Assembly (NCBI GenBank): GCA_000934665.2
Contig: JYFJ02000610.1
Coordinates: 62,001 to 118,736 of the forward strand
Length of the DNA: 56,736 bases
Direction of reading: 5' to 3'
Origin: Catajapyx aquilonaris
Lineage: Eukaryota
The position numbers and the translations under genes are program-made. The number at the start of each line of letters is the position of its first letter. Within the stretch, counting starts at the first letter, position 1. This document shows positions 15,735 through 54,645 of this stretch, in pieces. The notes under the pieces are model-generated. The model did not search any database. It was not told the origin of the DNA and worked only from the letters and a program-made list of their open reading frames with translations.

Positions 15735-17190
15735 CTAAGTAAAATCAGGATCTATGATGTCTATGAGGCAATGAGGAAACAGTAGCTCACAGCTCATCTT
15801 GGAGTTCAGCTTGATCCTTCGTGCTGCTTGTTCAGCTTCCTTGGCCGTGAAACCCAGGATCCATCTGTAATATGAGGATGGTCAAACGGGGGTCAAAGTG
15901 TACTGGACCGTATGTACCGTAGGAGCTGCATCAGCAGTGGTGGAGGTGATGCTGTGAATCTCTGAGCACGACATAAAACACGACCTCCACAGTCTGGATG
16001 GGTGTATTTCTGCTGAAGAGCGTTGGTCACCAGATAGGTCAACTCCTCCAGAGGTTTTTTGGGTGAATCCCAATGTGCTTTGGCTGTGGCTGTGGGTGTA
16101 CCGCCTGTACCGCCTGTCGTGGTCATCATCGCTCCTTTCTTAGCCTGCAGCTTGGTGATGAATTTCTGAAATATCACATGTAGGTGTAGGCGGTGTACGT
16201 GTACGTGCACCTGTACGTGTAGGTGCACCTGTACATGTACGTACGTGGTGCACCGTGTGGTGACGTGTATAGGTGTACTGTACGTGTAGGTGTACGTGTT
16301 CGTGTAGGTGCACCTGTACGTGTAGGTGCACGTATACATGGTGTACGTGTACGTGGTGCACCGTGTGGTGACGTGTTGGTGTACTGTACGTGTTGGTGTA
16401 CGTGCACCTGTACGTGTACGTGGTGCACCGTGTGGTGACGTGTTGGTGTACGTGTTCGTATAGGTGATCAGGTCTTGACTAAGGTCTGGGGACGGAAGTC
16501 TGTGGTTTTACTGTAGCTGTGGGGACCAGTTCCAATTGTGGGGACATTTGTCGGTCCCCACAGTCTCACACACGCGAAGTGTACCATTACAGTGGGGACA
16601 TGTGTAAATTAGTGGGGACATGTCCCCACTATTTTCATTTGTAGGGTTTCACAAAAGTCAATTTTTCTCAGCCTGGGTTACTTAGGGTAGGGTAGGTTAG
16701 GTAGGGTAGGTTAGGTTAGGTTAGGTTAGGTTAGATCAGTTTACACTCGCAGTGAAAAGTGATCAATGTCCGTCCCCACGCCTTAGTCAAGACAAGAGTG
16801 TGTGCACCTGTACGTGTACGTGGTGTACCGTGTGGTGACGTGTAGGTGTACGTGTTCGTGTAGGTGCACCTGTACGTGTAGGTGGTGCATCGTCTGGTGA
16901 ACACCACACCTTAATCATCCCACACTTACCTTGATCAGGTCAATTAGGCAGACAGCAAAGGTCAGAAAAGCTAGTCCAATCAGTGCTGCATCCATTGTCG
17001 GAAACTTCTTGTCACCTCGAGCCATCCCAGCCTCCCTCATCTCTGCAACACACTCATGTGAATCAACAGTTGTGACACTTACAGTCAACTTACCCAAAGA
17101 CATGAATCTCTCTGAGAAATCCAGTTCAGGCTTGGACGTTTGAGGTGCTCCGATAAACAGAAGAGTGACAACCAACAAGAGTCGATCCAT
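15735..17190 (-). CDS. Signal peptide + hydrophobic helix + Cys-motif protein (DM4/DM12-like, ~212 aa); exons 17190-16930, 16165-15918, 15864-15735
   Basis: MDRLLLVVTLLFIGA is a likely signal peptide and AALIGLAFLTFAVCLIDLI a hydrophobic helix. HPDCGGRVLC...SCELLFPHC has cysteine spacing like the neighbouring gene. Splice sites are phase-consistent GT-AG. Confidence 0.65.
16180..16885. repeat. GTAC/GTGCAC-rich minisatellite interrupted by a TIR element (16472-16793) containing (TTAGG)n
   Basis: TIRs GTCTTGACTAAGG...CCTTAGTCAAGAC and a TTAGG run at ~16682-16734. The whole block lies within an intron. Confidence 0.8.
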
Positions 17191-18138: not shown

Positions 18139-20145
18139 TCACTGATAATAGTTAACCAACATATTCCCATACATTTTCTTCATTCTGGATCGACATCGAA
18201 AAATCTCACCCAAAAATAGTAAGATGCTGAGTACCATAAAGCCACAATGCATCACCAGAGGACCTTTCAACTGACTCACTTTAAGAGCCATTGACAATTT
18301 ATATGACAAATTCTTAGCACGAGCATTTTTTAACTCCATAACTGAACAAGCATGTTGAAAATCTTTTGAAAATTTTTCCAACAATCCACTCTGAACTAAG
18401 TAATATTGTTGTCTCTTCACAATATTGTTCAGTAGTGAGTACTTGTTGACAGATGTCCCTCCAATAATTGTGATTGAAGTGTCATCAACAGCCACTTCAA
18501 TTGGTATACTCCCTTCAAGATCCATTTTCATGTAACCCACAGCATACAGGATATCAGGAAAAGAAAAGCAACTAAAATCTTCCTCAATCGCACGTGTAAG
18601 ACAAGCAAACATATCTTTCCCATCCTGCATTCCTTCAGCCATTGTATGATGAAAATCCAATTCAGAAGATTCAGTCACCATCTTGATATAAGGAGCCATA
18701 AAATCTATAGCACCCCATTGCCAATTGGGCCATGTACCCATTTCCTTAATATCATTAGGAAGTACTTCCATATCAGGTGATACCAAAAATCCAAAAAATT
18801 TTGCTTCATACCCACAGATAATTACTTCAGCAAATAACCACCAGAAACATATTAGAACTCTGAGGGAATCGCCAGTTGGTATTAAGTTAGGATTTTCTTC
18901 AATTAGAGCTGAGAATATATATCGAGCAGAATAGAGCACAATAGATTCAGGCGGATTTTCATCATCAGGAAATGGATATGTCATAGTGTACTGACACTTC
19001 AGAAGGAATAGAAACACTAGGGATGTCATAAAAGCTGTGATCATAATACTACACCACATAGTGTCAGTGTATGGCTTGAAGATGGCGATCCATGAGAACA
19101 AAGGACGTGGTAGTCTTCTGGCGTATGTTATTGTTGTGATGTAGAAACAATTGGGGATGTCCACCACACTTAAGGTCTTGTCTGATCCAAATCCTCCTCC
19201 AATCACAGCTTCCTTTCTAGCCACTGCTCCTATCATACCTGTCCAGTTACCATCAGGTAGTTGGACATCCTGATCCTGTCCGGGTATTTCAGGAGGTGCA
19301 TCTAGATGCCAGTCAAAGTTCATGTGCTCACCCATTAGTAGGAAGATCATCAGAAAGGGTATGACAGGCAGACCTTCTTCGATCAGGAAGCGAAGTTCAT
19401 CAGGAGATGTTTCGATGAAGACAGAGATGTTCAGATGTCGTCCATGTAGGTTGTCCGAATAGTCAGGGTATAGGACTAGGTCATGTGGGGTCACACCGGT
19501 GTTTAGGTGGTAATCTCCACGGTCAACAATCTTCGGGTTTCCGTTGTCGCAATAGTGACAGTTGCTGATGATTTCGATGCCTTTTGACGGTTGGTCGTAC
19601 ACTGCTCCTAGTTGATGCAGAAACTCGTACTCGGGTTCCATCATCGCAGTTTTGATGTCCGAATCGGGGCTGAAGTACAGGAACTTGTCCCATCTAGGGT
19701 TCATCCTGACCACTGTCGCTGTGTGTTTCAGTACCGGATCAAAATGACCATCGTGGTACATCATGACGAAGAGGATGCAGTTGGCGATGAACTTTGATGT
19801 TGGTCGTTCCAACCAGGAGAACCAGTACTCGAAGGCATTGTCCGCACCGGTGAATGGCGGTGGAGGTACGACCGAATCGGACCAACGTATGGGTACGACA
19901 GTGCTACCGGATTCGCTGATGTGTTGAAGCATCACCGAAAATTCAATCGGTAATATTTTGTAATCATGGGACACCACCACCACACAATCCTCTTCGTCTG
20001 ATTGAATCTTCTCAACCAATCCAGCCAACATTTGTTCAGGTTCGTTGATACGGATGGAGTGTGACAACGAAGGTGCTGTAGCCATGCTGTCAGTTATGGC
20101 CAAAATGATAACAATGGGCAACAATCCCCTGAATGTCCCACCCAT
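18139..20145 (-). CDS. Divergent ionotropic receptor (IR/iGluR-like), intronless, 668 aa
   Basis: Signal peptide, S1 motif PDGNWTGMIGAV, IFKPY..MW before M1, pore loop, M2/M3 region LRVLICFWWLF...YEAKFFGFL, and C-terminal TM after LKVSQLKG. Confidence 0.92.
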   Translation of the reverse strand: MGGTFRGLLPIVIILAITDSMATAPSLSHSIRINEPEQMLAGLVEKIQSDEEDCVVVVSHDYKILPIEFSVMLQHISESGSTVVPIRWSDSVVPPPPFTGADNAFEYWFSWLERPTSKFIANCILFVMMYHDGHFDPVLKHTATVVRMNPRWDKFLYFSPDSDIKTAMMEPEYEFLHQLGAVYDQPSKGIEIISNCHYCDNGNPKIVDRGDYHLNTGVTPHDLVLYPDYSDNLHGRHLNISVFIETSPDELRFLIEEGLPVIPFLMIFLLMGEHMNFDWHLDAPPEIPGQDQDVQLPDGNWTGMIGAVARKEAVIGGGFGSDKTLSVVDIPNCFYITTITYARRLPRPLFSWIAIFKPYTDTMWCSIMITAFMTSLVFLFLLKCQYTMTYPFPDDENPPESIVLYSARYIFSALIEENPNLIPTGDSLRVLICFWWLFAEVIICGYEAKFFGFLVSPDMEVLPNDIKEMGTWPNWQWGAIDFMAPYIKMVTESSELDFHHTMAEGMQDGKDMFACLTRAIEEDFSCFSFPDILYAVGYMKMDLEGSIPIEVAVDDTSITIIGGTSVNKYSLLNNIVKRQQYYLVQSGLLEKFSKDFQHACSVMELKNARAKNLSYKLSMALKVSQLKGPLVMHCGFMVLSILLFLGEIFRCRSRMKKMYGNMLVNYYQ

Positions 20146-21400: not shown

Positions 21401-21435
21401 TATAAAGAGACCTCGTTGACCGAATTTGTTCAGTC
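21401..21435 (+). promoter_or_regulatory. TATA box and initiator of the second IR
   Basis: TATAAAGA at 21401 and arthropod Inr TCAGTC at ~21430, canonical spacing, just upstream of the ATG. Confidence 0.6.
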
Positions 21436-21446
21436 AGCTTACAACC

Positions 21447-23444
21447 ATGCTGTGCGTTCTGTTCATCTTGTATGTGGCTACAGCCGTTGCCCAAAACACC
21501 TCAACTTTGACCTTAACGTATCAGCATCCTGAAAAATACAAGGTGTTAGTGCCCCTTCTGAAGACAGCAATCCACAACGAACGGTCATGGTCGAGGTCAG
21601 AGTGTATGCTGGTGATTGGACATGACCACGCCGTACTTCCAGGACTGTTGAACGACTGGCTGAACGAAGTTTCATCATCAGGAGGTGTCGCCCTACCAAT
21701 CAAATGGGACCCAACAACACCTGACCCCCAACCTAACTCAGGTCATAATAATATCTTCGAATACTGGTTCTCCTGGTTAGAACGTCCTACAAGTCGAAAG
21801 CTCTTCAACTGTCTCGACGTGGTGTTGATCAACCACAACAATGAGAACTTCCTCCGGATGATCAAGTACATCGCCAGTATTGTTAGTATGGACCCTAGAG
21901 AGAACAGACTGATATTCTTCAATCCGGATGGTGATGTACAAAGTGCTATGATGGACCACATACCCGAATATGAGTTTCTATACAAGATGGGACTAGTGTA
22001 TGAGGAAGATTCAGGTGACCTGAAGATTCTGAACAAGTGTCACTTTTGTAATGGAGGTAAGCCGACTATTGAAGATAGAGGGACATACTCTCTGAAGCAT
22101 GGTTTGACACCCCAGAAACTCAAGCTGTTTCCGGATTACTCTACTAATATGGAAGGTGCACACTTAAATATTTCATTTGTCGTTGAGACCAACCCAGAGG
22201 ATGTTAAGTACATGTTTGAGAACAACCTCCCCATTTTCCCATACGTATTCATGTTCTGGGATGCTGGATTGTTGTACAACTTTGATTGGCATTTCGAGTC
22301 ACCTCCTGAGGTTGAAGGTGTTGATGATGAGACCAGATTACCAGATGGAAATTGGACCGGTTTGGTAGGTACCTTACAACAACGACATTCCTCAATGGCC
22401 GCATGTTACTGCACTAGCTCCAGACTCCTGGTGGCAGATATCCCAACCTGTTTCATCAATGCACCAATCACATTTGTACGACGTGTTCCTCGTCCTTTGT
22501 TCACCTGGACCTCCATTTTTAAGCCATTTACCAACGACATGTGGTCAGCTATACTTGGATCAGCACTGGTAACCACACTAATCTTCCTAGCCATCCTCAA
22601 GTTGCAATACCCTCTGAAGTACCCATTTCCTGAAGAGCTTCAGAAACCCAAATCAGATGTCCTCTACTCCTTCAGATTCATTTTCTCAGCCCTAATTGAA
22701 GAAAATCCTAACCTAATTCCAACTCCATCATCCCTCCGTGTCCTCTTGTGCTTCTGGTGGTTGTTCTCAGATCTGATTGTTTGTGGATATGAAGCCAAAT
22801 TCTTCGGGTTTCTAGTGTCTCCTCAACTTGAGGAACTTCCAAACACCTTCAAAGATATGGCTCATTGGGGCAAGAAATGGGAATGGGGATCTATGGATCT
22901 GATTGCACCTCAGATCAAATCAGCTATCGAACCATCAGAATTGGCATACCACAAGATCATCATTGAAAAGATGCAGGATGGTAAGGATATGACAAGGTGT
23001 GTCAGAAGAGCAATCAAAGAAGACTTCAGTTGTGTATCAGTAGCAGCATTGTTATACGCTGTTGCTTATCAACGTATGGACTTAGATGGTAATCTTCCTG
23101 TAGAAGTCTCATCTGATCAGTCTGTGAACGTGTACGCCGGTATGGCAACTATGAAGTACGCTATAATTGGTCCAGCTATTAAGCGATATGCTCAAAGATG
23201 GGTTTCAGCCGCTATGGAAATGAGATATATGGATTACTTTACATTTTCAATTGTAATAATGAGTTTGAAGGACGCACGTAATGACAAACTTTCTTACAAG
23301 TTGTCGATGGAACTTAAGATTGACCAACTGAAGGGTCCTTTGGTTATGCTAATTGGTTTCTTGGTAATTGCTATGATTGCTTTTGTGGGGGAATTAATTC
23401 ACTTTCGCACGGCAAAGAAGAAGCTTCAGGAGTTGGACGAGTAG
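21447..23444 (+). CDS. Divergent ionotropic receptor, intronless, 665 aa (ATG at 21447, not TTG at 21426)
   Basis: Same architecture (PDGNWTGLVG, FKPFTNDMW, YEAKFFGFL, LKIDQLKG). Paralog of the flanking IRs. Confidence 0.92.
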   Translation: MLCVLFILYVATAVAQNTSTLTLTYQHPEKYKVLVPLLKTAIHNERSWSRSECMLVIGHDHAVLPGLLNDWLNEVSSSGGVALPIKWDPTTPDPQPNSGHNNIFEYWFSWLERPTSRKLFNCLDVVLINHNNENFLRMIKYIASIVSMDPRENRLIFFNPDGDVQSAMMDHIPEYEFLYKMGLVYEEDSGDLKILNKCHFCNGGKPTIEDRGTYSLKHGLTPQKLKLFPDYSTNMEGAHLNISFVVETNPEDVKYMFENNLPIFPYVFMFWDAGLLYNFDWHFESPPEVEGVDDETRLPDGNWTGLVGTLQQRHSSMAACYCTSSRLLVADIPTCFINAPITFVRRVPRPLFTWTSIFKPFTNDMWSAILGSALVTTLIFLAILKLQYPLKYPFPEELQKPKSDVLYSFRFIFSALIEENPNLIPTPSSLRVLLCFWWLFSDLIVCGYEAKFFGFLVSPQLEELPNTFKDMAHWGKKWEWGSMDLIAPQIKSAIEPSELAYHKIIIEKMQDGKDMTRCVRRAIKEDFSCVSVAALLYAVAYQRMDLDGNLPVEVSSDQSVNVYAGMATMKYAIIGPAIKRYAQRWVSAAMEMRYMDYFTFSIVIMSLKDARNDKLSYKLSMELKIDQLKGPLVMLIGFLVIAMIAFVGELIHFRTAKKKLQELDE

Positions 23445-26316: not shown

Positions 26317-28311
26317 ATGAAGGTTTTATTGTTGATCATCCTGTCCATACGTGTCACGATAAGTGTGGTGCCTGTGACCATCAAGGATTCGCAAAAACTG
26401 TCTGCACTATCATCATTCTTAAAACTAGCTCACAGCGAAAACCAAGAGTGCCTGCTGGTTCTAGGTCATGACTACACTATCCTTCCTTTAGAACTATCCA
26501 ATTTCCTCAAAGAAGTGTCCGGTCCTTTGAAGCGTCCCATATTACCGATCCGATGGAACCCAACCATACCTGAACCTCCGATCAACAATGGTAAGGACAA
26601 CAACTTTGAGTACTTCTTCTCCTGGCTGGAACGGAAAACGACAAAGGTGCTTGGTAACTGTCTGTTCATCGTGCTGATCAGTCATGATAATACTAACTTC
26701 AGAACCATTCTGAAGTATATGGCAAGTGTGGTGAAGATAGACACTCGTCGTGATCGGATCGCATATTTCAATCCAGATGCTGACCTATCTACGGCTTTGA
26801 TGGACACTGTTAATGATGTGGAGTTTGTGTACAAGATGGGGTTGGTATGGGACGAATCATCGAGGTCAATACAGATTAGGAACAAGTGTCACTTTTGTCA
26901 AGATGGATTCGCTAAGATCATGGAACGTGGGGTGTACCAAGAGGAACATGGTACGACCCCTGCTGACCTGGAGATCTACCCTGATTACACCCTGAACTGC
27001 TACAAAAGACACTACAACGTATCCTTCGTGATGGAAACAGGACCTGAGGATATCCGGTACTTCTTCGAGAACTACCTTCCGGTGTTTCCATACTGCTTCA
27101 TGTACCTGGATGCAGGTGACCACATGAACTTCGATTGGGAGTTCATCACACCTCCTGAAGTTGAAGGTGTTGAAGAAGAAACCCGGTTACCTGATGGCAA
27201 CTGGACCGGATTGGTTGGCGGCCTGCAACAAAGGAATGCTGAACTTACAGCATGTTACTGCACACCTGAACGTTTTGAAGTAGTGGATGTCCCCAGCTGT
27301 TTCATCAACGCACCAATAACATTTGTCATCAGGATGCCCAAACCACTGTTTTCATGGTCAGCAGTCTTCAAGCCATTCACCCCTGACATGTGGACAGCCG
27401 TCATATTCTCCGCTATTGTAACCACCATATTTTTCCTAGCCATCCTCAAGCTTCAGTATCCTATGGGACACCCTTTTCCTGAAGACCAACAGCCTCCTAG
27501 ATCTAACATCCTGTACTCCTTCCGGTTCATCTTCTCTGCCTTGATAGAGGAGAACCCTAATTTGATCCCAACACCTTCGTCACTCCGAGTATTGTTGTGT
27601 TTCTGGTGGCTCTTTGCTGATCTGATTGTCTGTGGGTACGAGGCCAAGTTCTTTGGCTTCCTGGTGTCTCCTGACCTGGAAGATCTTCCAGAAGATTTCA
27701 AGGCAATGTCCACCTGGAAAGGATGGGAATGGGGTGCTATGGATTTGATTGGAAAGCAGATGATGGCAGGTTTGGAACCATCGGAATTGGATTACCATAA
27801 GATCATATTGGCCCAAATGCAGGATGGGAAGGATATGACCGCATGTGTGAAGAGAACCATCAATGAAGACTTCAGCTGCATATCCGTCGCATCTCTTCTG
27901 TACGCTGTTGCATATCAGCGGATGGACTTGGATGGTGAGCTACCTGTCCAGGTGTCTGATGACCGCTCTTTAAATATGAATGCCGGAATTGCTGTGGTTA
28001 AATACTCGCTTATAGGTCCATCTATCCATAAGTATGTCCAGCGATGGTTTCAAGTAGGTATGGAGTTGATGTATTTCCATTACTTCAAAATGTCCATTGC
28101 TTTTGCGAGTTTGAAGGATGCCAGAGCTGAGAGACTGTCCTATAAGTTATCTATGGAGCTCAAGATTGACCAATTGAAAGGTCCATTGGCCATCTACATT
28201 GGGTTCATCTGTCTGTGCATCATATCATTTGTGTGTGAATTAGTTCACTTTCGCATGAAAAAGGAGAAGCGTCTGAATGATTCAGGCTCTGTAAAGATGA
28301 TTGAGCAGTAA
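26317..28311 (+). CDS. Divergent ionotropic receptor, intronless, 664 aa
   Basis: Same architecture, closest to the 21447 paralog. Retains the S1 arginine (TPERF). Confidence 0.92.
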   Translation: MKVLLLIILSIRVTISVVPVTIKDSQKLSALSSFLKLAHSENQECLLVLGHDYTILPLELSNFLKEVSGPLKRPILPIRWNPTIPEPPINNGKDNNFEYFFSWLERKTTKVLGNCLFIVLISHDNTNFRTILKYMASVVKIDTRRDRIAYFNPDADLSTALMDTVNDVEFVYKMGLVWDESSRSIQIRNKCHFCQDGFAKIMERGVYQEEHGTTPADLEIYPDYTLNCYKRHYNVSFVMETGPEDIRYFFENYLPVFPYCFMYLDAGDHMNFDWEFITPPEVEGVEEETRLPDGNWTGLVGGLQQRNAELTACYCTPERFEVVDVPSCFINAPITFVIRMPKPLFSWSAVFKPFTPDMWTAVIFSAIVTTIFFLAILKLQYPMGHPFPEDQQPPRSNILYSFRFIFSALIEENPNLIPTPSSLRVLLCFWWLFADLIVCGYEAKFFGFLVSPDLEDLPEDFKAMSTWKGWEWGAMDLIGKQMMAGLEPSELDYHKIILAQMQDGKDMTACVKRTINEDFSCISVASLLYAVAYQRMDLDGELPVQVSDDRSLNMNAGIAVVKYSLIGPSIHKYVQRWFQVGMELMYFHYFKMSIAFASLKDARAERLSYKLSMELKIDQLKGPLAIYIGFICLCIISFVCELVHFRMKKEKRLNDSGSVKMIEQ

Positions 28312-41671: not shown

Positions 41672-43968
<2,297 letters not shown>

Positions 43969-44667
43969 GCAGCCTACAGCCCTTGGGGACCACAAGTGGG
44001 AGAGCTCGCCCAACTGCTATCATTTGGTGAACCCCACAGCAAAACATTGAAAAAAATAGAAAAAATTCCAGCACAGGTCCTATAACTTCTTTCTGGAGCA
44101 ACTCTTTTTTCCTGGCATTTAAGTGTGTTAACTCCCACCCTCCTGCCAGCCTCTCCTCCCAATCAACACAACAACCACCCTTGTTAATTTTCCCCTCCTC
44201 CCACTCCATAAATGTAAAACACCCCTTTTTTGCACTTGTTTTTTTGAGAGAAGCGTTTTTTTACGAGTACGAGGATGGTTTCCACCCGATGTAAGCTCCA
44301 AGTGTTGAAAGAGAAAAATACAGTTGCTTGATTATTTGAAAAACCCAACTTAGTTGTTTTTTGAGATTTGGTTTCAGTTGGGGATGGGACTGGTTGCAGG
44401 TTAGGTCATTTCAGGTTACGTCGCTGGTGATGGTGTGACTTATTGCAGGTGAGGTCGCTGGTGACTGACTGCAGACAGGTGTGGGCCAGAAAGCATAAGG
44501 CCTGGACAGTCCAAGCTGAATATTTGAAATTTTTAAAGTAGTTTAACATGCAAATATTTTTAAAATAATAGCTTTCTATGTAAAAAAATCTATGAAGATC
44601 TATGAACAACATTGTGGGACTATGGACTGCTTGTTCGAGAAATCATGGTAAGGACTTCGGTAGAAAC

Positions 44668-45101
44668 TTAATATTTGTTTTAAATTTTTAGAATATAGTT
44701 TTAAACATTACAATTTTTTAAAATAATAGTGAACATGATCTATGAAGATCTATGAAAAATTTGGGAGTGCGACTGGGCCTGGAAGAGTAATGATTCAACA
44801 ATATGAAGCTGAATATTTTATTTAAAAATTTTAAAATATAGTGTTAACATGAAAATAGTTTCCAAATAATAGTGTACAATGGATATCTATGGAAAACTAG
44901 AGTTCATGCCACTACAGTACTGTAGTAAGCACTTATTGTTAGTTCAATCTGCCGCCACTAGATGGGATCACTGCCTTGACTAGCTCCTAGTGTTTCCCTG
45001 GCTCACCGCTAGATGTCTCCTGGCCCAACTCCTTGTCATCTTTTTACCGATTGATTTAGTGGCAGTTAATGGAGCAAGGGGCAGCCAGTTAGAAGCGCCT
45101 C
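44668..45101 (+). repeat. Dispersed ~430-bp direct repeat, second copy at ~50845-51281
   Basis: Shared blocks such as GAGTGCGACTGGGCCTGGAAGAGTAATGATTCAACAATATGAAGCTG and GCAGCCAGTTAGAAGCGCCTCTTTC. Confidence 0.85.
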
Positions 45102-45129
45102 TTTCGCTCATTTCCCGGTGTAGACTTGA

Positions 45130-45752
45130 GTCGATGGGTCACTCGAAATTGAGTATGAAGCCTATTTTGGTCACGCTGACTCCGAATCCGAAAACAGTTT
45201 CTTGCTATCACTTGCGGTTTAGCTGTCAACAGACGGACAGACGGACAAAGGAGTTCTATAAATAAATAAAAATCTATAATACTGTTTCTCATTGGTCAGC
45301 GGGGAATGAGGCTGGAAACAATATATTTCCAAGTAACCCAAGAACACCTCCCTGTAGATTTGACCTTGGCGGATAGAGGGAATCCGAAAAACCGGAAGTG
45401 GCCTGTCACCGAAAGTTACGTATGATTGTATGAAGCATATTTAGGGTCCGCTGAATTCGAATCCGAAGACCGTTTGTCGATATTCTTACGGTTTAGGCTC
45501 TGACAGCTGTCCACGGACGGACGGACGGACATTTCGATCCGGGGAAAAAATGTACAATATAAAATTCTAAATTCATTTCCCTTTACAGTAGCTCGAACTA
45601 ACAGATGACGCTAGAGGCGACGTCATTAAGCTCATCCCTGGATGGGTTGACATGACATGCGACACACATCTCCGTCATCTCCTCGTCTCACGTCCAGCTC
45701 ACTGAGGTTCATTCCAAACAGGAAGCAGGCGCCACGATTAAAACCCCACCCA
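45130..45752. mobile_element. DINE/Helentron-like repeat fragments with (GGAC)n; inverted relatives at ~51830-52141 and ~53265-53480
   Basis: Reverse-complement matches (CTCATTGGTCAGCGGGGAATGAGGCTG; GAAGCAGGCGCCACGATTAAAACCCC) and GTCC microsatellites. Confidence 0.6.
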
Positions 45753-46610
45753 AACAAGATTGGCAAATCACGTGAGCGTGATTAGAGTACACTTTTTCAT
45801 GTTTACATTTTACTGCTATTGTCTCTAACGTCCGTCACGGTACTGGGACTGAAAGTGAATCAACCCAACTGACTTTCGGCCAAAAGTGGACGTACCCTTT
45901 TCCCCCCTCCCCCTTCCTACCCCAGACCGCCCCTTTCCCCTTTAAACAACATATTCCAGCAAACCCATCTGTTATACATTTTTTCATCCATCGAAAATAG
46001 TCTTATAGCACGGCTCTGTCCGTCCGTCCGTCCGTCTGTGGACAGGTGTAATGATAAGAGGAGGGAGGGCCGGAGGGGGGAAATGGCGATCTGGGGGAGG
46101 GGGCGGTGCTGTGGGGGGACTGGACCAGGAGGAAAGGAACTGCCTAGCGAGGATGGGGCGGTCATCAGGGGTAGGTGGTGGTGGGGGGAAGGGGCGGTGG
46201 GGGGAGGGGGCGGATAGAGTGAACCCGGAACCCAAAAATCGAAAGAAAGTCCTGTAGTCCGGCTCTGTCTGTTGGTTCATGAGGATAGGTGAACAGGTAG
46301 GCCTATGTTACTAATATGGATATTCTGCAGCTTTGCTTTTTATTGCTCAAGAAACTGTAAATCTTTGTGAAACATTTTAACAAAAATTTTAACCACCGTG
46401 TTATAGTTTCCAATGTAGCCTACATTCAGGCTGCAACAGTTTTAGTACAAATACAATTATATTGGCTATCATTGTGCAAATTGAAATGAAAGTGAGTATC
46501 GATACAATACGTATCGGATTTTTTATATCGGTATATCAGAGTATCGATATAAGACTTTGCAGCAGTTGGGCGAGCTCTCCCACTTGTGGTCCCCAAGGGC
46601 TGTAGGCTGC

Positions 46611-48640
46611 CTACTTGCCGCCACGCAGGCGCAGCACCAGGTGGAGCGTCGACTCCTTCTGGGTGTTGTAGTCGCTCAGGGTACGGCTGTCCTGCAGCTG
46701 CTCGCCGGCGATGCTCAAGCTCTGCTGATCTGGCGGGATCCCTACGTTGTTCTGGATCTTGGCCTTCACGTTCTCGATGGTGTCTGAAGGGTCGGACTCC
46801 AGTTGGAAGGTCAGGGTCGCCGCCGCCGTCGTCATCGTCACCATGATCTGCGTACCACCTGACATGCAATAAATTTTTAGAATGTGTCCAACAATGTTTC
46901 TAGGATGTTTAAAGGGACATTCCACTCAAAATACAAGTTGGCCCCCAAAAATCGGGCAAAAAATCCTGATTCCGAATGTGCAATCGGTTTTTTCCTACGC
47001 CCAACGGTAACACGGAAAATAATATATCTTATACACACGTCGTCTGCTAAGAAGGGCGATACAACAGCATCTCGCGGCAAACCGGAGAAGTAGAGAATGT
47101 GCCGCGCCCAGGGTCACCTACATGAGTGCCTCCCCCACCTAGACAGTTAGACAGTTAGGGTGGGGGAGGCAACCATGTAGGGGACCCTGGCCGCGCCAGG
47201 ATGCTTTCTCTAGTTCCGCCCCGTTCCACTCTGGTGGCGGCCACCGCCCCGCGCGCGGTTTTCGAACGACACACTTCCAGCTTTCACACTGGCCTTACCG
47301 TTCGTCTCTAAGAAAAGCTGCTTATACCCTCGGAATCAGAATTTTTTGCCCGATTTTTAGAACGAAACTTGTATTTTGAGTGCAGTGTCCCTTTAAATGA
47401 AGGCGAGAGAACAATCTGAACTGGTCTCGGCACAAGAAGGGAGCGTGACTCAACCTGACCCGACTCAGAATGAAAGTCATGTCAAGTGTTGCAGGTGCAT
47501 CATTCTTTGTTGGCATATTATACCCACTAATTTCACTCCATAACCCGTGTAACCAAGAGTATATAATGTAACTTATCAAAGTTTGCCTCTAAAAATCGGG
47601 CAAAAAAAAACCTGAATCCGATGGTGCAATTCGTTTTTCGCTACGCGGAACGGTAATCCGAGGGTGAGGTGTCAAAGTGTGTCGTCTGCTAATGAGCGGC
47701 GTCGCCACGCGGGGAACAGGGGAACTGGTGGGCTGCACCGCTCTGGGATGAGCCTAAGCGCGGGGGCAGATGGGAGCAGCTATCCAGTTCCCAAGGTCCC
47801 GAGGGCGTCGCTGGCGGACGGCCAGCTTCTGGCGCACTATTTGAATTTCCCCACTTTGACCCCTCGCCCTCGCCCTCGCCCTCGCCCTCGCCCTGGGATT
47901 GCCGTTCCGCGTAGCGAAAAACTGATTGCACCTTCGGATTCCAGGATTTTCTGCCAGATTTTTAGACCCAAACTTGTTTTTTTTTTTAGTGGAGTGTCCC
48001 TGGCCTATTTCTGCTGCAAAGAGGACCGACGCCAGGGGGGTGGTCCTCCTCCTGGAAATTTGCCCACTCTGGGGATCTTTAACGTGCACTCGCGCAATGT
48101 CACAAGCACACGGGACCGACGGCTTTAATTCCCCTCCGAAGGAAGACGCACTCTCACTTTTCTACCACCTGGAGAAAAGTCACCGACCTCGGTCGTCCGG
48201 GTTCGAACCCACAACTTTGGGTCTAGAGGCGAGCGCGCTAACCACCAGACCACCAGCGCCGGCTACCCGTGTAACCTGTGTAGACTGCCCCTCTACTCAC
48301 AAAGACGAATAATTCCCCCTATAATAATCGTCCTATTTTTTCACTCTCTGTCTGGAATGCTCCAGTGAGTGGGAGAGGGAGGTCGGGGGCCTTGGTGAGT
48401 GCTGCCACCTTCTGGTGACTCCACTAACTCATCAGGGCAGGAGATTTTGCCCATTTTTGGCTACGGGGTGCACTAGTAACATTGAAATCAAGAGGGCATG
48501 CTCTCAATCAAGCAGGTCCCACAATCTGTGGTTACACAGCAGTGGATAGGCTACTCACCTGCAGGCAGTCCCAGGGACAGGAAGAAGAATAAGAAGGTCA
48601 CGATGGTCATCCAGGTCAAGCCAGGAAAGATCTTCGTCAT
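46611..48640 (-). CDS. Putative signal-peptide-bearing divergent ubiquitin-like protein (109 aa); exons 48640-48559, 46858-46611
   Basis: Exon 1 is [34 protein letters not shown] (phase 1). The exon 2 acceptor gcatgtcag|GT GGT is also phase 1 and leads to TQIMV...[13 protein letters not shown]...[11 protein letters not shown]. There are no stops or frameshifts. A minus-strand AATAAA lies at ~46339-46344. Confidence 0.65.
46913..47392. mobile_element. Kolobok-like non-autonomous TIR element; related degenerate copy at ~47580-48000
   Basis: TTAA|AGGGACA...TGTCCCT|TTAA with ~60-bp imperfect TIRs. Confidence 0.72.
48020..48262 (-). mobile_element. tRNA-derived SINE-like element
   Basis: The minus strand reads TGGTCTGGTGGTTAGCGCGCTCGCC...GGGTTCGAACCC, followed by a non-tRNA body. 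Confidence 0.55.
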
Positions 48641-50773: not shown

Positions 50774-52639
50774 TGATAAGCCCAGAAGATAGGGGTAGTG
50801 TCCGTGGGCTGCTACCAGCATAACTATTACTACTGTCAAGAATCAATATTTGTTTTAAATTTTTAAAATATGGTTTTAAAAATTACAATATTTTTTTTAA
50901 ATAATAGTCTACATGATCTATGAAGGTCTATGAAAAATTTGAGAGTGCGACTGGGCCTGGAAGAGTAATGATTCAACAATATGAAGCTGAATATTGATTT
51001 AAAATTTTTAAAATATAGTTTTAACATGAAAATAGTTTCCAAATAATAGTATACAATGGATATCTATGGAAAACTGGAGTTCATGCCACTACAGTACTGT
51101 ATTAAGCATTTAGTTCAATATTCCACCACTAGATGGCATCACTGCCTTGACTGGCCCCTAGTGTTTCCCGGGCTCACCGCTAGATGTCGCCTGGCCAACT
51201 CCTTGTCACTTCCATTTTTTTTACTGATTGATTTACTAGCAGTTAATGAAGCAAGTGGCAGCCAGTTAGAAGCGCCTCTTTCACCACATACGGTATAAAA
51301 TGAGGGGGATTTGGACCCCGATTATTTCCAGCCTATGGCATATTCAAATAAGGCGAAAAACTCATTCCGTCTCCCCTATTCTCCTCAGGGATTGGCTGAC
51401 CTGTGAAACGAACAAATTTCTCTGGAAATATTGAAAAAAAAAGTCTTTCTTCTGTTCTATTCAAGAGGCTTAGAAAATGCCAATTTCTAAGTATATGAAA
51501 AAAAGCCGTATCTGCATCAGTGCAGATGCGGCTTTTTTGCTTAGCATATCTTAAACCTAATTAATCCACGTCTTGGTCCAAGTGTTGATCTAGTTTGTGG
51601 AGTTTCCTTCCACTAGTTATACCTCGTTAACAGCTAGATATTTCAATCTATATTCTTGGTGGCAGAAACCCCCCGTCTTATCCTTGGGACTGGTGTCGTC
51701 ATTAGGTATTCAGGGTTTCCACTCGACAGATTCGCGCAATCTTCGCCTTCACGCACATTCCGCCAACTTGAGCTACGTGATAACCAACCCCTCCCTTGGC
51801 TTTAATTAGAACCCATTTTTGTAAGGTGCGGGGGGTTTTAATCGTGGCGCCTGCTTCCGGTTTGGAATGAACCTAAGTGAGCTGGACGGGAGACAAGGAG
51901 ACGACGGAGATGTGTCGCATGTCATGTCAATCCAACCAGGAATGAGCTACCATTATTAGGGTTGACGTCGCATCTAGCGACATCTGTTAGTTCGAACCTA
52001 TTGTATAGCAAAATAAATTTAGAATTTTACCTTTTAGATTATTATTTTTTTCTCGTCGAAATGTCCGTCTGTCCGTCCGTGGACAGCTATCAGAGCCTAA
52101 ACCGCAAGAGATAGCAACAAACTGTTTTCGGATTCGGATTCACTATATATTATACTATAGCTGCAGCGCCCGGCGCGGCGTTGCCCGGGAAGAAATGAAT
52201 GAAGGGAAAACACCTGCCAGTACCCCCGTCAACTGTCTGTCTTTCTGTGTGTCCGGACACCAATGCCATCTGTGGTCCTGCTACTACAACACCTTGAACC
52301 TCTCCCGCCTGTATAACGGCAACCCTCATTTGCCTCCATCTGTAGTCAACCTCCAACACCTCCTTCCTCTCCCGGCCTGGGGGTGGAGCACAGATGGCAG
52401 GCAAATGACGGTTGGCAGGCGGACAGACAGACAGAGAGGCAGACAGAGAGACTCACAAACGGCTTTATTGATATAGCCTGCCATCTGTAGTCAACCCCCA
52501 ACACCTCCATACTCTCCCGGCCTGGGGATGGAACACAGATGGCAGGCAAATGACGGTTGGCAGGCGGACAGACAGACAGAGAGGCAGGCAGACAGACAGA
52601 CTCACAAACGGCTTTATTTATATTATATTACATTATATT

Positions 52640-53226
52640 TTTTGTTACCCCGTGATGGGGCGGAGCATTTTAGGGGGGTGGCATACCACCGTCAGTTTTC
52701 TTCGATTTTTCAGCCTCTTACTTCGCACCTGGTGGGTCCATGGATGGGGAAGGAAGGACGCGGCTGTGGCCTATTTTTACGAAAACGACCCCGGAATTAT
52801 CCTGGGGGGACCGTGGGAAACTACAGAAAACCACGATCAGGGTCGCCGACCCCGGGATTCGAACCGAGGACCTCCCAATTAGCAGGCGGACTTCATATCC
52901 ACTACACCGACATGCTTCGGTCGATTCACTATATCCGCCAAGGTCAACTCTACAGGAGGGACCGAAATAGGTTGGTGCAGTGGATAGAGAGCCCGACTGC
53001 TAATCTGGAGGTCCTGGGTTCGATTCCCGGGGCCGGCGATCCTGACCGTGGTTTTCTGTGATTTTCCACGGTCCCCCCAGGATAATTTCGGGGTCGCTTC
53101 CGTATATAGGCCAAAGCCGACCCCTTCCTTCCCTATCCTTGGCCCCATCCAATGGTGGGATTCCACCCCCCTAATGGACGAGCGCCGATTCTCCCAATGG
53201 GTAATCTAGATAAAATAAAATAAAAT
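52640..53226. mobile_element. Head-to-head pair of tRNA-derived SINEs (~52640-52920 -; ~52958-53226 +)
   Basis: A box TGGTGCAGTGG, B box GGTTCGATTCC, shared body and (TAAAA)n tail. Confidence 0.75.
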
Positions 53227-53929
53227 GAATAGAATCTACAGGAAGGTGTATTTGGGTTACTTAAAATATATTGTTGCCAGCCTCATTCCCCGCTGACCAA
53301 TGAGAAACAGTATAATAGAATTTTTAAATAGAACTCCTTCGTCTGTCCGTCTGTTGACATGTATCAGAGTCTAAACCGCAAGAGATAGCAAGAAACGGTT
53401 TTCGGATTCGGATTCAGCGCGACCAAAATAGGCTACGTACTCGATTTCCGGTGATCCATCACTTCCGGTTTTCCGCGAAGGTCAAGTTTACACCGGGAAA
53501 TAAGACCATGTCATTGTGTGTCCAGTTAGAATCGCATCGTGTCGTATCGTATAACAGTTTCTGTCTCATTTCCCACTGCCCAATGAGAAAAAGGATACTC
53601 GAATCACGCTCGCTTTGCCAATTTTGTTTTTAAAATATGTACTTAATATGCCAAATGGGATCATTTATAATTTGATTTTAAAACAATGCAATAGTACTTA
53701 TTGTAATAAATATAGTCCCACAGTAGACTAATTAATGACAGTTTAATGATAGGGAAATTTTGCATTCAACTTTAAGAACTTTGTTATCACATCATAGTGG
53801 GGCAATAGTATTTATCTTGCCCACCAAACCTAGCTAATTAGTAATTACAGTCCCGGGTAATTAGGTAAAATTGTTAATAAATAAAAATAGTTAAATTAAT
53901 AATACTTTAAACAAGGATACGCTCTAAAT

Positions 53930-54645
53930 TGGTTAATTACTTTAAATTATTTTATTTAAATTATTTTAAAATTTATTTAAATGCCATATTTAATCCTTTT
54001 AAATTTATTTTAAAATTGATTTAAATTCCACATAGGTATTTTTAATATTTTATCATTTATTAAAAAATTTATTTAAATATTTAAAAATTATTTAAAAATT
54101 TATTTAAATATTAAAAATTTATTTAAATATTAAAAATTTATTTAAATATTAAAAATTTATTTAAATATTAAAAATTTATTTAAAAATTTATTTAAATATT
54201 AAAAATTTATTTAAAAATTTATTTAAATATTAAAAATTTATTTAAAAATTTATTTAAATATTAAAAATTTATTTACATCTTAAAAATTTATTCAAAAATT
54301 TATTTAAATACATGTACTTTGTTTTCATATTTATTTCAATTTTCAATTTTTAGATTTAAATTTATTTAAATGCTTTATTTTTAGATTTACTTCAATTTTC
54401 CATTTTAAAATTTAAATTTATTTAAATGTTTAATTTTTGATTTATTTAAATGTTCAATTTTTAGATTATTTTATTTAAATGCTCAATTTTTAGATTTATT
54501 TAAATGCTCAATTTTTAGATTTATTTCAATTTTCAGTTTATTTAAACTTTATTTTTAGATTTATTTCAATATTCAATATTCAATATTATTTAAATACTTT
54601 ATATTCATTTGAATTTTCCATTTTAAAATTTAAATCTATTTAAAT
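53930..54645. repeat. AT-rich minisatellite (TTAAAAATTTATTTAAATA unit and variants)
   Basis: Direct tandem repeats read from the sequence. Confidence 0.9.

Follow-up and report, generated by a model that had tools for sequence, protein, structure and literature searches.

Does a diverged piece of ubiquitin coding sequence, lying in inverted orientation next to a polyubiquitin gene of Catajapyx aquilonaris, belong to a new gene for a secreted protein, or is it a relic of that neighbour? The piece is found in a 56,736-nt stretch of contig JYFJ02000610.1 (positions 62,001 to 118,736; assembly GCA_000934665.2), hereafter the window, in whose numbering all coordinates are given. The original prediction had described it as the second exon of a young gene, joined through an inherited splice acceptor to an upstream exon with the layout of a signal peptide. 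We found that the piece is a partial inverted duplicate, made at the DNA level, of the neighbouring gene's 3' end, that its substitution pattern is neutral-like and that its divergence is uneven along its length. It has probably been drifting without selection on its protein, which would make it a relic, or a neutrally drifting chimeric proto-gene at best.

The parent gene and the boundaries of the copy

Ubiquitin is among the most constrained proteins known, and the nine units of the parent gene are identical in translation, while their synonymous sites, with differences of 0.35–0.67 from unit to unit, are nearly saturated. Identity in protein combined with 35–67% synonymous divergence indicates, in turn, that concerted evolution has done little to homogenize the units in recent times.

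Self-comparison of the window delimited a block of homology with this gene of 329 nt on the minus strand (46889–46561), with abrupt ends on both sides. The block holds no parental promoter, first coding exon or start codon, and no parental 3' processing or poly(A) region. It joins the tail of the internal intron straight to the last unit, which is followed by the stop codon and a piece of the 3' untranslated region (3'UTR; see Table 1 for coordinates). Aligned with its source (43729–44018), the copy (46859–46561) is 85.6% identical over 299 nt, the two forming a tail-to-tail inverted repeat with 2.5 kb between the arms; the longest identical run, 55 nt ending at 44018, includes the 3'UTR piece. 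The unit in the copy is nearest to unit 9, with a proportion of synonymous differences (pS) of 0.158 against 0.44–0.63 for the other eight units.

Given the intron tail, the unit-9-type unit and the 50 identical bases of 3'UTR, the copy derives from the adjacent polyubiquitin gene, as had been proposed. The claim that it had lost its ATG and kept a homologous acceptor was likewise borne out. ACG stands at the position of Met1, and the acceptor of the copy (...ttattgcatgtcag/GTGGT on the minus strand, the slash marking the junction), which puts the start of the second exon at 46858, corresponds to the end of the parental intron, taaatatttatcgcatttcag/GTGGT (also written ...tttatcgcatttcag/GTGGT), with 24 of the 31 intron-tail bases matching. 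At the other end, the extra C-terminal codon of the parent, CAG (Gln), has become AAG (Lys), so that a single residue again follows Gly-Gly before the TAG at 46613–46611.

The copy would have arisen through duplication, tail-to-tail and 2.5 kb downstream of the parent, of a segment that began within the internal intron and extended 50 nt beyond the stop codon. The six units between the intron tail and the last unit were presumably dropped through unequal recombination or slippage, leaving one unit of the unit-9 type.

Divergence of the copy

Selection on the copy was tested against unit 9 over codons 15–76, whereas the neutral simulation and the test of the severity of replacements covered codons 17–61. 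The former region has 13 non-synonymous and seven synonymous changes, corresponding to non-synonymous (dN) and synonymous (dS) divergence of 0.098 and 0.178, respectively. The ratio, 0.55, is indistinguishable from the neutral expectation (binomial p=0.29) and gives no sign of strong purifying selection. Since the parental units are identical in protein, every replacement sits on the branch of the copy; part of the synonymous changes fall on the branch of the parent, so that dN/dS on the branch of the copy is nearer to 1. In the simulated region, 12 replacements were observed against 12.8 expected, their mean BLOSUM62 score was −0.17 against −0.46 under simulated neutrality (p=0.27), and three hydrophobic residues had been lost against 1.7 expected. 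Once released from the very strong purifying selection that acts on ubiquitin, the copy would have drifted, its amino acids changing at the neutral rate; such a copy, freed from the constraint on ubiquitin, would show how the sequence behaves once selection stops.

Functional ubiquitin has an invariant L8/I44/V70 patch, R42, K48, K63 and a C-terminal LRLRGG. In the nucleotide alignment, changes from unit 9 include K6T, K11A, V17S, R42S, I44S, F45I, K48E and I61T; position 8 is altered as well, whereas K63, V70 and LRLRGG are kept. With I44S, R42S, K48E, K6T, K11A and a lost start codon (ACG), the copy does not have the sequence of a functional ubiquitin. The first 16 codons, in which the indels are located, are much more diverged than the remainder, and a run of ACG/GCG trinucleotides lengthens the first hairpin, with a net in-frame insertion of 9 nt within the first 20 codons; trinucleotide slippage may have extended the hairpin in this way.

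The copy is still recognized by the ubiquitin profile PF00240 (74.3 bits, above the gathering cut-off of 25.4, against 116.1 bits for a parent unit), its residues 16–78 aligning to profile positions 10–72. It shares with canonical ubiquitin one 16-letter stretch and the whole C-terminal 15-letter stretch. It differs from it in about 25 replaced or inserted positions and the missing start codon, whereas the nine neighbouring units are identical to each other. In single-sequence AlphaFold2 models, the mean predicted local distance difference test score (pLDDT) was 61.7 and the predicted template modelling score (pTM) 0.51 for the copy, compared with 84.4 and 0.72 for the parent unit, and strands three and five of ubiquitin had no predicted counterpart in the model of the copy. 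Lower confidence in a predicted structure may be taken as a soft indicator only.

Divergence is distributed unevenly: in codons 17–61 the copy departs from unit 9 at 19 of 135 sites, but beyond codon 61, as far as the homology extends, at just 2 of 101 (Fisher p=0.0009). This pattern is most simply explained if the duplication is older (dS about 0.2 or more) and the closely spaced inverted arms have since undergone gene conversion at their 3' end, which would lately have re-homogenized the last 101 nt. The description of the locus as young therefore agrees with the near-identical 3' end alone, the middle of the unit being ∼14% diverged with dS about 0.18.

The near-identity of the 3' ends bears on another explanation, a role at the RNA level, in which read-through transcripts of the strongly expressed parent would fold back on the copy and give rise to endogenous small interfering RNAs (siRNAs) against the 3' end of the polyubiquitin message. 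The dimensions of the inverted repeat, with its 299-nt arms and perfect 55-nt stretch, and the two differences in the last 101 nt would suit such a hairpin. The predicted duplex energy is −542 kcal/mol, but any inverted repeat of this kind would give such a value trivially. Loci whose hairpin RNAs yield endogenous siRNAs have been described in Drosophila (PMC10317233), and hairpin-RNA loci (PMC10317233, PMC10292708) resemble this locus in consisting of an inverted repeat related to a protein-coding gene with a long perfect match. Here the arms lie in different transcription units, co-transcription is putative and the parent most likely terminates well short of 46.5 kb; gene conversion alone accounts for the identity of the arms; and the would-be target is a housekeeping gene, unlike the selfish-gene targets named in PMC10317233. 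We regard a hairpin role as very improbable.

The copy could also be transcribed from some other start, provided by a promoter within the inserted repeats or by an untranslated 5' exon, and translated from an internal ATG three codons into the unit, yielding a cytosolic, N-terminally shortened ubiquitin-like protein that ends in Gly-Gly-Lys. In-frame ATGs are present at unit positions 4 and 7, and LRLRGG is kept together with one removable residue, as in the GGQ end of the parent. The same absence of constraint applies to such a protein, and loss of R42, I44 and K48 speaks against its use by the ubiquitin machinery, which makes this possibility a very slim one.

The candidate first exon and a possible secreted product

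Several observations weigh against drift as the full account of the locus, some of them concerning the copy and others the exon predicted upstream of it. The 82 codons of the copy contain neither stop nor frameshift, their indels adding up to +9 nt, in frame; the copy thus combines the lost promoter and start and the neutral substitution pattern of a duplicated pseudogene fragment with a frame free of disabling changes. The selection test rests on only 20 substitutions and has low power; the same pattern would result if the copy had first drifted and had only lately become part of a gene. The near-identity at the 3' end, here ascribed to gene conversion, could instead stem from selection for complementarity with the parent. 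The upstream exon (exon 1 in the following) ends at one of only four perfect [CA]AG/GT[AG]AGT donors in the window, both strands counted (1.7 expected), and a frame opened by an ATG precedes this donor, 48559(−), in phase 1 only, the phase needed to restore the frame. In 3000 simulated stretches of 3 kb, an ATG-opened phase-1 exon with a perfect donor occurred in 0.8%; with the further demand of a signal-peptide-like sequence, the counts fell to 0 of 3000 for a perfect donor, 0.1% for a donor matching at least 8/9 positions and 1.5% for at least 7/9. Exon 1 also has an A at −3 from its ATG and a signal-peptide-like layout.

These points differ in force. The frame stayed open by chance in 34–41% of neutral simulations, and for this reason its integrity is weak evidence for a gene. 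Without the signal-peptide demand, donors of at least 8/9 and at least 7/9 were reached in 12% and 64% of the simulated stretches, respectively; across the actual 3.1 kb that precede the acceptor, exon 1 alone among ATG-opened phase-1 candidates has a donor of at least 7/9. It is also the only exon in the window, in any phase and on either strand, to combine a donor of at least 8/9 with a signal-peptide-like sequence, the signal-peptide criteria being heuristics set only after exon 1 had been seen. The exon was itself picked out of a very large scan. Its hydrophobic core is encoded in part by an imperfect (TTC)n run, so that hydrophobic peptides come cheap here. Even so, exon 1 is hard to dismiss as chance and is the sole feature of the locus that does not look neutral. 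Whether it is a real exon seems to us an about even call, a figure estimated from a rough prior for a real first coding exon in any 3 kb and from rough frequencies of perfect donors and signal peptides among real exons, rather than computed.

The features claimed for the gene model, namely an 82-nt upstream exon with a consensus donor and matching phase 1 and an intact 109-residue open reading frame (ORF), are all present in the sequence. Joined by coordinates, the two exons give 330 nt with an open frame of 109 codons, shared by the partial parent copy and the flanking exon, which would be the layout of a young chimeric gene. The peptide encoded by exon 1 has 27 residues, with one Lys, a hydrophobic core and a small-residue end, and its maximum 12-residue Kyte-Doolittle mean is 2.45. 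Its ATG, at 48640(−), has an in-frame TGA 9 nt upstream, the exon is non-repetitive within the window, and residues 4–47 of the product are charge-free. The predicted AATAAA lies downstream of the stop at about the distance given for it (Table 1) and is poor support for the gene model, because the window contains 154 copies on its two strands, where about 57 are expected; this excess is owed largely to tandem arrays at 2196–2413 (−) and 53951–54565 (−).

Taken at full strength, the model is that of a functional two-exon gene, in which translation would begin in exon 1 with a cleavable signal peptide, the inherited acceptor would join the exons in phase 1, and a ubiquitin fold of ∼80 residues would be secreted without the interaction surface of ubiquitin itself. 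The gene model is coherent. Its donor is perfect, its first exon is the single candidate of its kind, and the chance estimates for that exon run from 0.8% down to below 0.1%; an in-frame stop stands just ahead of the ATG, with A at −3. Signal-peptide cleavage sites follow a rule of small residues at −3 and −1, which fits the Ala-Gly-Gly found immediately ahead of the ubiquitin unit in the spliced product. Replacements are concentrated on residues through which ubiquitin interacts, as would be expected if that function had been shed, and secreted ubiquitin-domain proteins exist in cyst nematodes (PMC4802876). Set against this are the lack of detectable constraint on the protein, the conversion of core hydrophobic residues to polar ones (V17S, I61T) with reduced confidence in the fold, the ease with which a TTC repeat yields a hydrophobic peptide core, and the lack of a TATA box in a by-eye reading of the sequence upstream of exon 1; in the protein collection, moreover, the diverged first 40 residues retrieved one candidate, and none was scored. 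We consider a functional gene of this kind unlikely, though with a probability that is not negligible. About as doubtful is its evolutionary extension, an arthropod secreted ubiquitin-fold protein born of the host's own polyubiquitin fragment, whose acceptor captured a signal-peptide exon and whose I44, R42, K48, K6 and K11 surface was shed, as an early-stage and independent parallel to the effectors of cyst nematodes.

The claim of a functional gene thus found no support, there being no detectable purifying selection on the ubiquitin part, core and interface residues having been lost, confidence in the fold being below that for the parent unit and the intact frame counting for little. The copy is most likely a non-functional relic, judging from its substitutions, and if exon 1 is used, the locus would be a chimeric proto-gene under neutral evolution rather than an established secreted-protein gene.

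Searches of the protein collection with the 81-residue product of the second exon returned only ordinary ubiquitins (at least 7985 of 8000 scored sequences passed), with a best identity of 81%, at partial coverage, among the 120 matches listed. Exact look-up in the collection found none of four queries, namely the exon-2 product, a 104-residue ORF and two neighbouring receptor ORFs; as the two receptor ORFs are absent too, silence of the collection on the copy says little. In metagenome scans, neither the back-translated pattern of the diverged N-terminus nor that of exon 1 had a single match.

Other uses of exon 1 were considered. Among 284 downstream AG sites tested as acceptors, no convincing alternative coding exon was found. 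Position 48559 might instead be a recursive splice site (ratchet point) that has nothing to do with the ubiquitin fragment and lies within a long intron of some unseen gene on the minus strand, a pyrimidine tract plus CAG adjoining GTGAGT. At ratchet points, known from long introns of Drosophila, an acceptor directly adjoins a donor (PMC8605326), and CAG does stand directly ahead of the donor, with a pyrimidine-rich run 15–38 nt upstream. The 11 nt preceding this CAG are, however, only about half pyrimidine, and no minus-strand host gene is visible in the window, the neighbourhood being dense with plus-strand genes. Of all the alternatives, this one strikes us as the most far-fetched.

Counted from its ATG, the opening 39 nt of exon 1 (48602–48640, −) are similar, in register, to the beginning of a ubiquitin unit. 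Bases 20–39 share 16 of 19 identities with bases 20–39 of unit 2, a score reached by 34 of 2000 shuffles, and the in-register identity with a ubiquitin unit (24/45) is exceeded by four and equalled by two of the 1928 ATGs in the window. The idea that exon 1 derives from a ubiquitin unit by decay was rejected: neither its upstream extension (28 of 300 controls as good) nor the alignment of the whole exon (195/1918) or of its donor end (1328/1630) was significant. This weak likeness is unexplained and is not built upon here.

Another of the four perfect donors closes an ATG-opened frame at 16930–17190 (−) with a typical signal-peptide-like start and no Pfam hit; a real gene for a secreted protein probably has its first exon here.

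Known systems and the surrounding window

Partial gene duplicates, and chimeric young genes made from them, have been described in Drosophila, including an X-linked testis chimeric gene (PMC1463047; reviewed in PMC3449122). As in those cases, a part of a gene has been copied at the DNA level beside its parent with a piece of intron retained, and a first exon as well as a poly(A) signal could be newly recruited from the flank. Unlike those chimeras, this locus shows no detectable signal of selection, its transcription is putative, the copy is inverted and seven units have collapsed to one.

Secreted ubiquitin extension proteins, Hs-UBI1 and its relatives, are on record in cyst nematodes (PMC4802876, citing Tytgat et al. 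2004), so that the precedent invoked for a secreted ubiquitin protein does exist in print. The predicted layout, one ubiquitin domain behind a signal peptide, is shared with them, whereas the origin here would be independent, from the host's own polyubiquitin. The nematode proteins are reportedly expressed in a secretory gland and delivered outside the cell, and they reportedly carry a C-terminal extension peptide after Gly-Gly, where the copy has one residue (Lys). Their ubiquitin domain is well conserved, unlike that of the copy with its lost I44, K48 and R42. Our literature search, in sources available in part, brought up no clear precedent for arthropod secreted ubiquitin-domain proteins, a result that does not establish their absence from print.

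If a two-exon transcript exists, the locus would offer a dated case of gene birth through partial duplication and capture of a signal-peptide exon; if its product is indeed secreted, it would be an arthropod counterpart to the nematode proteins. On its sequence, the locus is a well-defined candidate and not an established new gene.

Table 1. Features of the polyubiquitin gene, its inverted copy and the sequence between the two candidate exons (window numbering)
Feature	Position	Strand	Remarks
Parent polyubiquitin coding region	41825..43971	+	two units, intron, seven units; protein ends GGQ
Parent internal intron	42276-42361	+	86 nt, phase 1, inside Gly75 codon between units 2 and 3
Source segment	43729..44018	+	end of unit 8, unit 9, stop, first 50 nt of 3'UTR
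AATAAA	46344-46339	−	267 nt past stop; not parent-derived
Parental 3'UTR piece	46561..46610	−	50 nt, identical to 43969-44018; homology ends here
Ubiquitin-derived exon	46611..46858	−	GT GGT, one diverged unit, AAG, TAG
Parental intron tail with acceptor AG	46859..46889	−	24/31 bases identical to 42331-42361
Putative intron	46859..48558	−	1700 nt, mostly inserted repeats
Inverted-repeat (MITE-like) element	46908-47397		103-nt arms; in putative intron
Second, related inverted-repeat (MITE-like) element	about 47579-47982		in putative intron
tRNA-like stretch	about 48190-48260		boxes recognised by eye
Splice donor CAG/GTGAGT	48553..48561	−	perfect 9-mer consensus; exon ends at 48559
Candidate first coding exon	48559..48640	−	82 nt, ATG to CAG/GT, phase 1

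The upstream flank of the copy would have been filled by transposable elements. The putative intron contains two related elements that resemble miniature inverted-repeat transposable elements (MITEs), with arms of 65–103 nt, the first of which includes an 88%-complementary palindrome (47100–47198); its stretch 47107–47191 gave only sub-threshold matches to Rfam microRNA families, on both strands. ARAGORN called no transfer RNA (tRNA) between 44000 and 50000, a range that includes the tRNA-like stretch. Dispersed repeats flank the locus (44513–45750 against 50845–53460, 69–89% identical), a related piece, judged from shared ORF text, lies near 23.7–24.4 kb, and a run of 15 Ns at about 49.8 kb, ∼1.1 kb upstream of exon 1, is probably an assembly gap.

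Elsewhere in the window, the neighbouring ORFs point to an arthropod. Three single-exon paralogues of 664–672 residues, at 18139–20145 (−), 21426–23444 (+) and 26317–28311 (+), are ionotropic-receptor-like with a Lig_chan domain. The atlas clusters to which they relate are mostly from Arthropoda; a search with a receptor ORF found no relative at E≤1e-20 among 5777 candidates, a threshold that was too strict. The three may represent a lineage-specific expansion. Upstream of the polyubiquitin gene, on the plus strand, are hemocyanin/phenoloxidase-type exons (Hemocyanin_M) at 29.2–32.4 kb, a BTB-domain gene at about 33.4 kb and a DEAH-type helicase at 36.4–39.3 kb.

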